Assembly: GCF_000026545.1 (NCBI RefSeq)
Contig: NC_011601.1
DNA from: Escherichia coli O127:H6 str. E2348/69
Lineage (GTDB): Bacteria; Pseudomonadota; Gammaproteobacteria; Enterobacterales; Enterobacteriaceae
DNA: 64,000 bases
Strand: one strand, 5' to 3'
The position numbers were made by a program. Position 1 is the stretch's first letter. Each line of letters begins with the position of its first letter. Of the stretch, positions 57,001 to 63,000 are shown one piece after another.

Positions 57001-60000
57001 CTTGCCATGCTCCAGTCCTTTTCTTCTGGGCCGACTTTCCGGGAGGTGCTTAAACGAAAAACCCCGCCCGGTTTGCGCCGGCGGGGTTTTGGAATCGTGT
57101 GTTGTTCCAGTCCCTACGGCGCATTGCCGACGACCACCACCACACGCACGACGACCACTGCGGCAGATGGCGCAGTTGGTAGTAGTTTTGCGTTGAACAT
57201 GGAAGTAGTCATTAGGGACCTTGTTGGTTTTGTGTTTAACAATATTTATACAAGCACAGCTTTACAGGGGAGACAATGGAAAATTTTTCTTCCGGATAAA
57301 AATACGTGGCAGATCACATTTTGAACTGAAACTCAGGCAATAAAGCATCATCACCTGAAAGACGGTCAGATTGTTGACAGAGTGCGCCTTATTCATGTCG
57401 AATACAGCGTAAACACCTTACCCTACCAACCGCACCATCACTGTTTCCGGCAACATTTATTGCCGCTTTTGTTTACATATTCTGCCGCTAAACAATTCCC
57501 CATTCCTGGCGTATATCTGGCTAACATTCATCAATGTGATAGATTCCTCTCCCGCATTTATGGGAATGCGTAGTGACTTATTCTAATTATTTTTATAAAA
57601 GCATCCGTGATAATGAAAAGGCATAGAAACGTCAATTTGTTATTGATGTTGGTATTACTCGTGGCCGTCGGTCAGATGGCGCAAACCATTTATATTCCAG
57701 CTATTGCCGATATGGCGCGCGATCTCAATGTCCGTGAAGGGGCGGTGCAGAGCGTAATGGGCGCTTATCTGCTGACTTACGGTGTCTCACAGCTGTTTTA
57801 TGGCCCGATTTCCGACCGCGTGGGTCGCCGACCGGTGATCCTCGTCGGAATGTCCATTTTTATGCTGGCAACGCTGGTCGCGGTCACGACCTCCAGTTTG
57901 ACGGTATTGATTGCCGCCAGCGCGATGCAGGGGATGGGCACCGGCGTTGGCGGCGTAATGGCGCGTACTTTGCCGCGCGATTTATATGAACGGACACAGT
58001 TGCGCCATGCTAACAGCCTGTTAAACATGGGGATTCTTGTCAGTCCGTTGCTCGCACCGCTAATCGGCGGTCTGCTGGATACGATGTGGAACTGGCGTGC
58101 CTGTTATCTCTTTTTGTTGGTTCTTTGTGCCGGTGTGACTTTCAGTATGGCCCGCTGGATGCCGGAAACGCGTCCGGTCGACGCACCGCGCACGCGCCTG
58201 CTTACCAGTTATAAAACGCTTTTCGGTAACAGCGGTTTTAACTGTTATTTGCTGATGCTGATTGGCGGTCTGGCCGGAATTGCCGCCTTTGAAGCCTGCT
58301 CCGGCGTGCTGATGGGCGCGGTGTTAGGGCTGAGCAGTATGACGGTCAGTATTTTGTTTATTCTGCCGATTCCGGCGGCATTTTTTGGCGCATGGTTTGC
58401 CGGACGTCCCAATAAACGCTTCTCAACGTTGATGTGGCAGTCGGTTATCTGTTGCCTGCTGGCTGGCTTGCTGATGTGGATCCCCGACTGGTTTGGCGTG
58501 ATGAATGTCTGGACGCTGCTCATTCCCGCCGCGCTGTTCTTTTTCGGTGCCGGGATGCTGTTTCCACTGGCTACCAGCGGCGCGATGGAGCCGTTCCCCT
58601 TCCTGGCGGGCACCGCTGGCGCGCTGGTCGGCGGTCTGCAAAACATTGGTTCCGGCGTGCTGGCGTCGCTCTCTGCGATGTTGCCGCAAACCGGTCAGGG
58701 CAGCCTGGGGTTGTTGATGACCTTAATGGGATTGTTGATCGTGCTGTGCTGGCTACCGCTGGCGACGCGGATGTCGCATCAGGGGCAGCCTGTTTAAGCT
58801 CACGTCACCGCAGCATCGTCATCAGCTCCATGGGAGAACGATGCTGCTTTATCAGATCACGCATCACCCGCATATGCGGCGCGGAGTAAGAATAAAACGC
58901 CTGATAGCCCGCACAAAGCACGTTGTCTGGCGTCTCCTCCCGAGCGTGCGGGCACAGGCGATGCCAGTCGCACGCCTGGCAGCCACGACGCGGTTGCGGG
59001 TTTTCGCTGCCACACCATTTTTGTAGGGTGGCGTCAAAAAGCTCAATCGAAATACGACTGATATCTGCCCGTACCCAACACTCGAACAGGGCAATTAAAA
59101 ATTTCCCCCACAGCTCTGCTGTCACCGAAGCGGCCGTCAGATCGCCCCGGTCATCAAATTCAAGATGGGGAATAAGCTGTACTGAGCGGATGCCCAGCTG
59201 TTTGAAATTGTGATAAAAATCGGCAGGTTGCAGAGCATCCTTATACTCTACAACCAGTTTATGCCTGTCCTCTTCAGCATCAATGACCTGACTTCCTGTC
59301 ATGCGACTCTCTCAATAAATACGATAAGTTGATGTATATGCGTTACAGCAAACAGTATTGCGAGAGATAACACCGCGAGGGAGATCAAAAATTTGTCACG
59401 GACTACGTGAAATTGGGAAAAATCGCTATTCGTGACATCCATTAAATTGCGATTACGGGTGTAGTGCCAGAGGATCAGCGCCACAATGGCGAGGATGCCA
59501 ATCGAAATCCAGAATAACATGCCCGCCTGGTGCCAGTTGTGTTTGATAGCCAACGCCATCAACGCGCCGTAGCCCAGCATGGTACGAAACCACGCCAGTG
59601 ATGTGCGTTCCGGCTGCAGCCCTGGGTCGGCAATGCGTCTGGCTTTGCGGCTATCCGGCATACAACACCAGTCCCATGACGATCACTGCCACGACCATCA
59701 ATATTAAGCTAATGATTAATAAGCTGTTGGTATAGGGCAGGTCCTCTTTCAGGCGCATCGCTTTTTCATTGCGTAACCAGCGCAAGTAGCCATACATCGC
59801 TAACCCGCCGGAAAACAGACACAACAACAACGCCAGCAGTTCGCGGATGACGGGCGTGGCGAAATCTGGCGCAAGTTGATCAAGCCCAACCCCCGCCGCC
59901 AGAAATCCTAGTGCAGTACGGATCCACGCCAGAAAAGTACGCTCATTAGCCAGCGAGAAGCGGTAATCGGGCGCTTCTCCGAGGCGGGAAATTTTCATTG

Positions 60001-63000
60001 TTGCTCCTTGTAAACTGTTCCTCGCCGAAAAATTAGGCCAGGAACAGCAATAATGCATCAGAACTTCTGTTTTTTCTCTTCCACCTTCACCCCTTGTGTC
60101 GGTAAACCGGTGTCATAGTCGCGTACCACTGGAGAATAACCATCCTGTGGGCGTGGACGAAACGCCCCCATCCAGCGCGGTTGTGCATCTTTGCGCCACG
60201 GACGCAGGTTCCATTGATAACTGCGGAACGGATCGCGAATTTTGTCCATGTAATCCAATAAGGCGTCATGCATTTTGCTGCGAACGTCGGCAAAATGGAT
60301 ATCATCGATCAGGTTATGCATTTCATTTGGGTCATTACGGCGATCGTAAAGTTCATCACTGGTGAAGAGGTTGAGCACCAGTTTAAAGTCATCCGTTACC
60401 CAGCAACGCACCGGAATAAAACCGCCAAAGCTGTCATGCTCAATCTCGTAGCGATTAAATTCCACCAACACGCCACGTGGTTCTTTCACGGCAAGGATAT
60501 TTTCCCCCGGCAGAATCTCTGGTTTTTCAATATCTGCCAGCGCCATCATTGTCGGCAGTAAATCAATATGACTGACTGGCGTATCGACCTGTCGCCGCTC
60601 CCCTTGCGGCGAACGGATGATCAGTGGAATGCGGGTGATGTCGTCATACATCGCCGCTCCTTTACTGATCAGCTTATGTGCGCCCATCATTTCGCCGTGA
60701 TCGGAGGTATAAATAACCCACGTATTTTCACGTTGCTCTGGCGTTAAGGCATTGATGACCCGTCCGATTTGGTCATCAACAAAGTCATTGCAGGCAAAAT
60801 AGAGCGGATGGTGATAAAGCCCGTCATCACCGACTGGCGATGGCATCGCCTGCGCCCATAAGCGGTGATGTTCCGGTTTGTTCGCCAGGTCATCCTCTGC
60901 TTTCTCACTCAGTTCGTAGTAAAAATCAGTATATTTCTCTAAATACTCCACCGGACAGGTAAACGGGTGATGCGGCTCATCATACGAAACCACCATCAGG
61001 AAAGGTTCCTCGGCGCGCGCGGGCTGTTGCAGAAAATCCACCGCCCGATTGCTGATGCGGTGCGCCCAGGTGAAGGTTTCGTCAATATGGTTCGCCTGTA
61101 AATCCTCAACGCTGTTTAGGCCATTGCGCCACAGGCTAATCTCTTTCTCCGTCAGTTCACTAAGATAGTTCGCTCCATCGAACCAGTAATCAGCGTCCCA
61201 CTCCGGCGGACACTCGCCAGTGCCGAAATAGTCATGTCCATCGAGATGCCATTTGCCGATGTAACAGGTGTGATAGCCCGCATCCTTAAAGTAGCGCCCC
61301 ATCGTGGAGATGTTTTTGCCCGGCGCGACGTTGTTGGTCCACGGGCCGGACTGGTTAGCGTAGATACCGGTGAATAGTCCGGCGCGTGCAGGTGTACAAA
61401 CCGGTGAACAGGTGTAGGCAGAATTAAAGCGAATACCTTCTGCCGCCAGACTATCAATATTTTGCGTATTCAGCGGCTTACCGCTATAGCAACCGACCAT
61501 ATTGGTGGCCTGGGTATCGGTCATGATGAACAGAAAATTGGGGCGTTTCATAGGCTATCCTTCGCATCGGGAGTAAAGGTTACGGCTGGGTCGTGACGAT
61601 GCCGCCAGCTGTCAAAAATCAGGTAGACAATCACTACGGCGGCGATGAAATAACTGATCATCGCTAACCAGCGCGTACCGTAGCCACCGAATTCAGCCAA
61701 CCCGGCATAGACGCCAATCATCGCGAACAGGATACCAATTGACGCAATCTTGACGTTTTTCCACGGTTTCATGTCCACCGCAAACGCATCTTTGAAGGTG
61801 AACGGCGTGGCGCGCGGTTTGATAAAACCGATCACCAGCATCACGACCACGTTGATGCAGAACGTACAGGCCAGCACATAGAGGAAATGGAAGTCGAACT
61901 TCACCAGATAGTTGATGGTGATGTAGCTGATTATGCCAATCCCCATCGCCACTTTTGCCGCCAGCGCCGGAATGCGCGGGAAGAAAAAGCCCATAATGAT
62001 GATGGTAACCAGCGGCACGTTGTAAATACCGTTGAGCTGTTTCATCCAGCTATACAGCCCCTGCGGCGCGTTGGCGATCCACGGCGCGACCATCACCGAA
62101 ACGATGGCGATAAAGAAACCAAATTTGCGCCCGACGGTGACCAGCTGTTGCGGCTCGGCATTCTGGTTAATGATGCGCCGGTAAATACCCATACTGAATA
62201 ACGTACTGGCGCTATTCAGAAAGCCGTTGAAGGTACTGATCACCGCACCAAATAACACCGCACCGAAGAAGCCCACTAGTGGCACCGGCAGAACGTTATT
62301 GACCAGCGTCGGGTAGGCCATGTCGGCTTTCGGTAAATCCTGATACAGATGAAACGCAATCAACCCTGGCAGCACCAGTACCAGCGGGTCGAGCATTTTC
62401 AGCACCGCCGTTAACAGCGCCCCCTTTTGCCCTTCCGCCAGGCTTTTTGACGCCAGCGTGCGTTGCACGATGCCCTGATTTGTACACCAGTAAAAGGTGT
62501 TCACCAGAATCAAACCGGTAAATGCCGCGCCAATCGGCAAGGGATCGGTCGGGCCGCCGACTGAGTTTAATTTCTCGGCGTGAACGGTGGTGAGTTGCTC
62601 AATGCCCTGCATAAAGCTGCCCTTGCCCATCGCGATCAGGCCAAATACCGGCACCATCAACCCGCCAATAACCAGCCCAATACCGTTAATGGAGTCCGCC
62701 ACTGCCATTGCGCGCAGTCCGCCGATCACCGCATACAAAATTCCCGCCAGACCAAGCAAAATAACCAGTAACCAGATAGCCGCACCATCGGAAAGTTGTA
62801 GCGACTCACCCACATGAAACAGGCTGTTGAGCGCCAACGCGCCGGAATAGAGAACAATCGGCAGAAAGCAGACGCCGGTGGCAATGAGGAAGCAGAAGTC
62901 GATGATAATACGCGTCGTTTTATCATAACGTTCCTCCAGAAAATCGGGGATGGTGGCAATGCCGCGCTTCAGATAGCGCGGTAAAAAGATTAGCGCGAGG

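Follow-up and report, generated by a model that had tools for sequence, protein, structure and literature searches.

YidF of Escherichia coli descends from an anaerobic sulfatase maturase by in-frame losses and is under purifying selection in its short form

The window considered here is a stretch of 64,000 nucleotides from Escherichia coli O127:H6 str. E2348/69 (assembly GCF_000026545.1, contig NC_011601.1), which contains yidF, the last gene of a yidK-yidJ-yidH-yidG-yidF string that also encodes the Cys-type sulfatase YidJ. YidF descends from the anaerobic sulfatase maturases (anSMEs), and in its short form it is neither a maturase nor a plain pseudogene, being under purifying selection in many genera. 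The favoured explanation as a whole, in which an anSME shrank in frame and lost maturation, YidJ is served in trans and the remnant is kept by selection, is considered likely. The initial annotation, made from the sequence alone, judged its own observation on this gene pair to be probably not new. This stands for the annotation, but a literature search for yidF, yidJ and truncated anSMEs returned nothing on the origin of YidF or on selection acting on it (one mention of “YidF” was set aside as a typographical error for YdiF). What the analysis adds is the origin of YidF, the series of natural intermediates and the evidence of continued selection. The features of yidF are the following:

58805..59302, minus strand: yidF coding sequence, 165 amino acids (aa), an internally reduced anSME descendant (open reading frame, RefSeq coding sequence, partial match to TIGR03942 at 1.8e-21)
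59270..59281, minus strand: junction of gap 1, codons ~8-11, where residues ~9-152 of the full-length enzyme are missing
58991..58996, minus strand: junction of gap 2, codons 103/104, where residues ~246-304 of the full-length enzyme are missing
58913..58981, minus strand: retained cysteines C108, C111, C117 and C130 (CX2CX5C...CxGY), from the HMMER alignment to 4K36
58808..58897, minus strand: C-terminal tail FYSYSAPHMRVMRDLIKQHRSPMELMTMLR, a near-invariant helix (codon use, ratio of non-synonymous to synonymous change (dN/dS) in the tail, AlphaFold2 model)

A scan of one genome per species yielded 63 loci which, together with the window and one metagenome contig, make up a set of 65. Every locus recovered with YidF as query contains a contiguous yidH-yidG-yidF, usually with emrD and ilvB nearby. 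YidF is a protein of 350-374 aa in 27 of these loci (most 367-374), of 165-178 aa in 31, an intermediate of 192, 213, 220 or 249 aa in four, and frameshifted in three. The orthologues of 350-374 aa lie at the syntenic position with the same MTG or MPG start overlapping the yidG stop, and 26 of the 27 carry the CxxxCxxC (CX3CX2C) motif. The Atlantibacter protein matches both Radical_SAM (3.4e-17) and SPASM (5.6e-8) and is 43% identical to E. coli AslB end to end. AslB is nevertheless distinct from full-length YidF, by this level of identity, by its partner aslA and by its C-terminal tail, since the tail SAPHMRVMRDLIKQHRSPMELM is almost invariant across short and full-length YidF and differs in AslB. 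A metagenome-assembled genome, matching Atlantibacter at 99%, carries yidL, a transporter gene, yidJ, yidH and yidG followed by open reading frames of 162 and 204 aa, which join into one anSME starting MTGCHVMAKPASSRCNLRCRYCFY; their separation is explained by two N bases in the assembly. In Leclercia sp. 29361 (locus extract L017, 1065-6120), yidH-yidG and a full-length yidF are preceded by a different sulfatase (494 aa), a phosphotransferase system (PTS) EIIC-GAT permease and an arylsulfotransferase, which form a second sulfate-ester gene set at the same locus.

With the Atlantibacter full-length protein as reference for the gap map, YidF keeps residues 1-8, is without ~9-152, keeps 153-245, is without 246-304 and 318-321, and keeps the remainder. 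Gap 1, which in all Escherichia corresponds to residues 9-53 and 56-152 in Atlantibacter numbering, takes out the CX3CX2C motif, the GGE motif and most of the radical-SAM barrel. Gap 2 takes out the equivalents of C255, C261 and C276, which are ligands of auxiliary cluster I in anSMEcpe (cluster ligand assignments and numbering from PMC5715301), along with the conserved CDHY motif. With the C330 equivalent lost to the additional four-residue gap of Escherichia, none of the four ligands of auxiliary cluster I is left. The N-terminus reads MTGSQVID in YidF and MTGCHVMA in Atlantibacter, and MTGSQV matches the MTGC(H/Q)V of full-length forms. Because the start overlapping yidG and the first residues are kept and the gaps are internal, YidF is the ancestral gene with in-frame losses and not a 3′ fragment. 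The initial annotation had compared YidF with the C-terminal half of an anSME. The C-terminal match is indeed found, but “half” does not describe a protein in which the ancestral start and the first ~8 residues are kept and two stretches of the interior are missing in frame.

The course of events can be outlined accordingly from the orthologues. As these show, the ancestral locus had yidL on one side of yidK-yidJ-yidH-yidG-yidF, and its yidF specified an entire anaerobic sulfatase maturase (369-374 aa) of the radical-SAM/SPASM type. On the way to Escherichia, yidF lost residues ~9-152 and ~246-304 plus four residues including the C330 equivalent, all in frame, with retention of the C-terminus and of the original start codon, which still overlaps the yidG stop. 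The resulting protein would be without catalysis, and the formylglycine conversion still needed at Cys52 of YidJ would be supplied in trans.

Profile searches agree with this origin. The proposed check of YidF against the radical-SAM and SPASM profiles of Pfam gave no match to Radical_SAM (PF04055) or SPASM (PF13186) even at E<=1, and no CxxxCxxC motif is found in YidF, on alignment with the full-length orthologues, or in any of the 31 short forms, as the initial annotation had stated for YidF. The anSME model TIGR03942 matches YidF only from profile position 160 onward (76.6 bits for a cut-off of 349.45), residues 17-101 aligning to positions 160-245 and a second stretch matching at the C-terminus, which bears out the claim that only the C-terminal part of an anSME is resembled. 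NF010308 likewise scores 75.1 bits for a cut-off of 484, and the profile match to 4K36 is at 1.9e-18. An AlphaFold2 model of YidF built from 62 sequences has a mean predicted local distance difference test (pLDDT) of 80.7 and a predicted template modelling (pTM) score of 0.79, with helices at residues 127-152 and 158-164 (pLDDT 81-91). Its only significant Foldseek matches in the PDB are the anSMEcpe structures 4K36-4K39 (E ~1e-5, TMq 0.60-0.64). Common descent with the anSMEs is thus supported by syntenic full-length orthologues with the same start and by profile and fold matches.

Since the radical-SAM core, the cluster I ligands and the CDHY segment are missing, YidF cannot work as an anSME, and the doubt expressed in the initial annotation that it could be a self-sufficient maturase was well placed. 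Judged from its residues, the 165-aa protein should be unable to bind or cleave S-adenosylmethionine or to make formylglycine, with high confidence. RefSeq/PGAP names YidF a “radical SAM protein” despite the lack of a radical-SAM domain or motif, a name inherited through C-terminal homology. The older label “YidJ-maturating enzyme” would mislead equally, and counts of E. coli sulfatase maturases should exclude YidF. Compared with the anSME family (AslB, AtsB, anSMEcpe 4K36-4K39; TIGR03942), YidF shares descent and the equivalents of the cluster II ligands, but is without CX3CX2C, GGE, the SAM-binding barrel, the cluster I ligands and the CDHY segment.

The cysteines that remain follow a clear pattern. 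YidF C108, C111, C117 and C130 align to C317, C320, C326 and C348, the auxiliary cluster II ligands of anSMEcpe, and C108, C111 and C130 are invariant in 31 of 31 short forms. A pattern left by random decay was rejected, as the mapping to anSMEcpe shows that the retained set is exactly that of the cluster II ligands. The seven-cysteine SPASM motif for two auxiliary clusters is not present and CX2CX5C...C remains, hence the SPASM-like cysteine clusters noticed initially do exist, but amount to one cluster’s worth. In the Twitch-domain enzymes BtrN and MoaA, the SPASM module is likewise naturally reduced to a single auxiliary cluster site. However, Twitch enzymes are without CX2CX5CX3C and have a working core (PMC5715301), whereas YidF keeps most of the motif, including CX2CX5C, and has lost the radical-SAM core; it is not a Twitch-domain protein.

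If YidF is not a maturase, the sulfatase of the same gene string has to be considered. Its features are the following:

60058..61551, minus strand: yidJ, Cys-type sulfatase of 497 aa (Pfam Sulfatase 8.6e-72, SGSH_C 1e-16)
61366..61398, minus strand: yidJ sulfatase signature C52-T-P-A-R-A-G-L-F-T-G (translation; orthologue comparison)

YidJ was initially described as the neighbour of YidF, but the two genes are not adjacent, as the DUF202 genes yidH and yidG intervene. The C-x-P-x-R signature ascribed to YidJ is present as listed: the protein is 497 aa long in 27 of 27 loci, and C52TPARAGLFTG is invariant in all of them. With the PF00884 domain, the C-x-P-x-R-x4-TG signature and an SGSH_C extension, YidJ belongs to the S1 formylglycine-dependent, Cys-type sulfatases, and C52 is expected to be the residue destined for formylglycine. 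It differs from other S1 sulfatases in that its sequence opens with the sulfatase core and lacks a signal peptide, so that it is presumably cytoplasmic, and in that it scores below the arylsulfatase and choline-sulfatase equivalog cut-offs. The symporter and the AraC-family regulator encoded beside yidJ suggest that an imported sulfated small molecule could be its substrate.

The dN/dS of YidJ is 0.04-0.06 alike in genomes with short YidF (Escherichia, Klebsiella, Superficieibacter, Salmonella arizonae) and in those with full-length YidF. This equal constraint under either form indicates that YidJ is still a working enzyme where its local maturase has gone, and that it is probably matured in trans. 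The search for a full-length anSME elsewhere in the genome, suggested by the initial annotation, found aslB (~411 aa, “anaerobic sulfatase maturase”), a complete Radical_SAM and SPASM protein adjoining aslA. E. coli has two putative anSMEs, AslB and YdeM, and is suspected of having a third formylglycine-forming system, whose gene was not identified (PMC8379841). The in-trans candidates for YidJ are AslB, possibly YdeM (ydeM was not located in E2348/69), or an aslB/ydeM-independent Cys-type route; that short YidF itself takes part in the latter is very improbable. In Citrobacter, yidJ-yidK accompanies full-length YidF in 6 of 7 species and short YidF in 0 of 13 (p = 2e-4, from species that are not phylogenetically independent), a pattern that fits full-length YidF acting as the dedicated maturase of the loci that still have it. 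When all genera are taken together, full-length YidF and yidJ are not significantly associated (odds ratio 2.7, p = 0.07). The constraint on YidJ in lineages with a dead local maturase makes these lineages a natural test bed for the puzzle of sulfatase maturation in E. coli.

Another reading would make YidF the C-terminal half of a split maturase that matures YidJ with a separate radical-SAM half, AslB or YdeM, as its partner. It could draw on the gene string shared with yidJ, on selection acting on the short form and on the retained, surface-exposed auxiliary cluster II site, which in anSMEcpe was proposed to pass electrons out (PMC5715301); it is nonetheless highly unlikely, as no N-terminal half is encoded in any of the 65 loci, a simple split could not rebuild the electron path and active site with all four cluster I ligands and the CDHY segment missing, short YidF occurs in 24 species with no yidJ at the locus, and YidJ, where present, is no less constrained with short than with full-length YidF.

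The evidence for selection comes from comparisons of short forms with each other. In 13 phylogenetically independent short-short pairs with the same gap architecture, which diverged after the reduction, 402 of 4,871 non-synonymous and 449 of 1,405 synonymous sites have changed, giving a pooled dN/dS of 0.21 (Fisher p = 7e-99). By region, the ratio is 0.19 in the N-terminal remnant, 0.22 in the barrel remnant, 0.26 in the cysteine region and 0.13 in the tail. The invariant residues of the tail use three to six synonymous codons, indicating that it is the protein, rather than the DNA sequence, that is constrained. Furthermore, no Rfam family was found in a scan of 56800-64000, and a repeat search found the yidG/yidH paralogous motif alone, so that neither an RNA nor a repeat explains the conserved tail of yidF.

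This bears directly on the possibility that YidF is a functionless pseudogene relic, a dead maturase that has not yet decayed. Such a relic would account for the loss of the catalytic core, and several observations weigh on its side and against a selected protein. The gene is wholly absent, with yidH-yidG intact, from Salmonella enterica and Enterobacter kobei. It is frameshifted in the species representatives E. albertii NBRC 107761 and Leclercia adecarboxylata NCTC13032, and a minority of E. coli alleles, many in number and each at low frequency, are frameshifted or further deleted, some possibly through assembly errors. Short YidF also evolves much faster than its neighbours, being ~45-55% identical between genera as against 81-99% for YidH, and over all usable pairs its median dN/dS is 0.26 versus 0.14 for full-length forms. 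The absences and broken alleles imply that any residual role is dispensable, and the higher median that constraint is relaxed yet clearly present. However, the marks of a pseudogene, a broken frame or a dN/dS near 1, are not what is seen: of the 38 non-full-length species, 35 have kept an intact frame, with amino-acid divergence reaching ~55%, all length differences among the 35 reduced forms are in frame, and the AlphaFold2 model is compact and confident. Together with the pooled ratio in pairs that diverged after the reduction and the varied codons of invariant residues, this makes the relic unlikely, and purifying selection on the remnant is preferred.

Where yidF is absent, 8-28 bp separate yidG from the end of the gene beyond it, emrD or dsdA (S. 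enterica, locus extract L073, 5001-5716; E. kobei, L070/L071, 5001-5708). Two rare E. coli alleles (proteins P0033 and P0101) show further in-frame loss, one encoding a 110-aa YidF without residues 36-90 and the other a 95-aa protein in which YidG residues 1-44 are joined to the YidF C-terminus. In the complete genome of Enterobacter sp. EA-1, yidF, yidG, emrD and ilvB all appear frameshift-fragmented, for which a poor assembly is likelier than biology.

Short YidF (164-178 aa) is found in Escherichia, Citrobacter, Klebsiella, Leclercia, Superficieibacter and Silvania, at 42-52% identity to E. coli YidF. When 1.84 billion representative proteins were searched, the top ranks were taken by compact short forms, in about ten clusters, and below ~E = 1e-40 the listed matches are anSME-like proteins or fragments where the profile spans a longer stretch; among the listed matches, the compact short form looks confined to this clade. 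The natural series of 374, 360, 350, 249, 220, 213, 192 and 165-178 aa depicts a three-cluster radical SAM enzyme pared in frame to a selected, apparently one-cluster remnant, and may show how a SPASM half can exist alone.

The reduction does not seem to have occurred once. The short forms of Leclercia adecarboxylata, Silvania and the metagenome form RIT714 have the five-residue gap 193-197 and the tail RHHRSPVELMALLQQSHRA of the full-length protein of Leclercia sp. 29361, and in a neighbour-joining tree, a method vulnerable to long-branch effects, the Leclercia and Silvania short forms nest within the full-length clade, beside Leclercia sp. 29361. Similarly, an amalonaticus-type tail is common to the short and full-length proteins within one group. 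A ten-residue gap of their own and different gap 1 boundaries mark Klebsiella and Raoultella, Superficieibacter YidF begins at an internal Met equivalent to Met33, and YidF of C. amalonaticus ku-bf3 keeps CxxxCxxC with residues 29-154 missing. Small in-frame gaps (4, 14 and 23 residues) are also seen inside the cluster I segment of the otherwise full-length proteins of Kosakonia and RIT691. The shared lineage markers, the differing gap 1 boundaries and the nesting in the tree indicate more than one independent reduction: at least two, and probably more. Against independent origins, nearly all reduced forms share residue 246 as the start of gap 2, which could reflect one old shared event or a structural limit on the deletions that are tolerated.

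As for what is being selected, the remnant may survive as a small non-catalytic protein whose role is new or residual. In its likeliest form it would hold a single [4Fe-4S] cluster at the retained site of auxiliary cluster II, with the conserved C-terminal helix packed against it, and a small one-cluster Fe-S protein is our best guess from cysteine conservation and fold. The wider proposal, that short YidF is a new small protein family formed by repeated in-frame shrinkage to the cluster II site, the C-terminal helix and a third of the barrel, and selected as a one-cluster Fe-S protein, is tentative and should be taken as possible rather than likely. Two observations speak against the Fe-S part. 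The position of C117 is a Tyr in seven short forms, those of the Citrobacter freundii complex, and the cysteine loop is the lowest-confidence region of the AlphaFold2 model, although this is expected when the model has no cluster.

Alternatively, short YidF could be an accessory subunit of a YidG/YidH membrane complex, its tail docking on the DUF202 proteins, and for this reason be kept without the sulfatase. This is in keeping with the contiguity of yidH-yidG-yidF in 65 of 65 loci, when only about 27 of the 65 include yidJ-yidK, and with the overlap of the yidG stop and the yidF start (ATGA at 59299-59302), which suggests translational coupling. Yet S. enterica and E. kobei retain yidH-yidG and have no yidF, for which reason yidH-yidG-yidF was rejected as an obligate trio, and AlphaFold2 modelling of a YidH-linker-YidG-linker-YidF chain gave no confident assembly (pTM 0.40, pLDDT 59.8), a weak result given 19 paired sequences and no interface scores. 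A membrane subunit is accordingly judged improbable, somewhat more so than the relic, and a one-cluster protein remains the preferred, if tentative, account of the retained role.

A lead comes from the other side of yidF. Its convergent neighbour in 45 of the 65 loci is dsdA, the gene for D-serine ammonia-lyase, usually with 0-60 bp between the two stops and with dsdX and dsdC beyond it; Escherichia has emrD in place of dsdA, with a gap of 7 bp (58798-58804). YidF overexpression is listed in a table as raising D-serine resistance (PMC12363166), an entry whose original source was not traced, and a link to D-serine tolerance can be held as a lead. The yidF transcript exists, as it forms RIL-seq chimeras with GcvB (PMC9299463).

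The stretch 58700-61650 is 100% identical to the E. coli E2348/69 chromosome, where RefSeq annotates the same genes at the same coordinates, and the locus is found in 5,420 of 5,426 complete E. coli genomes. The neighbouring genes are the following:

59299..59661, minus strand: yidG, DUF202 membrane protein (Pfam DUF202, PF02656, 7.1e-12)
59651..59998, minus strand: yidH, DUF202 membrane protein (PF02656, 5.2e-19; RefSeq start, the mechanical open reading frame extending to 60058)
61548..63263, minus strand: yidK, sodium:solute symporter, first gene of the yidK-yidJ-yidH-yidG-yidF string (Pfam SSF 8e-50; NF007790 1.3e-257)
63430..64000, plus strand: yidL, divergent AraC-family regulator clipped by the end of the window (RefSeq annotation; locus extract L001, 7731-8597)
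57613..58797, plus strand: emrD, convergent neighbour and boundary marker outside the system (RefSeq; stop 7 bp from the yidF stop)

In other genera, yidL accompanies yidK-yidJ. A promoter and terminator scan gave nothing exceeding shuffled expectation, and no terminator between yidF and emrD. In K-12-like strains, yidI (149 aa, plus strand; locus extract L002, 4407-4856) lies between yidH and yidJ; it is absent here, where the yidH-yidJ spacing is ~59 bp (59999-60057), and most of the listed E. coli rows include it. Similarly, the ivbL-ysdE spacer (~57213-57456) is 245 bp long here as against 778 bp in a K-12-like strain, where the toxin gene tisB lies within it, and the tisB region appears to be missing from E2348/69. 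In about 300 E. coli genomes, the match extends over less than 80% of the query; both of those inspected are without the yidJ part. In E. coli HCP8S3_I1 (locus extract L003, 6469-8249), an IS200/IS605 TnpB gene stands with a tnpA pseudogene in place of yidJ-yidK-yidL, and this replacement adjoins 6-phospho-alpha-glucosidase and PTS genes.

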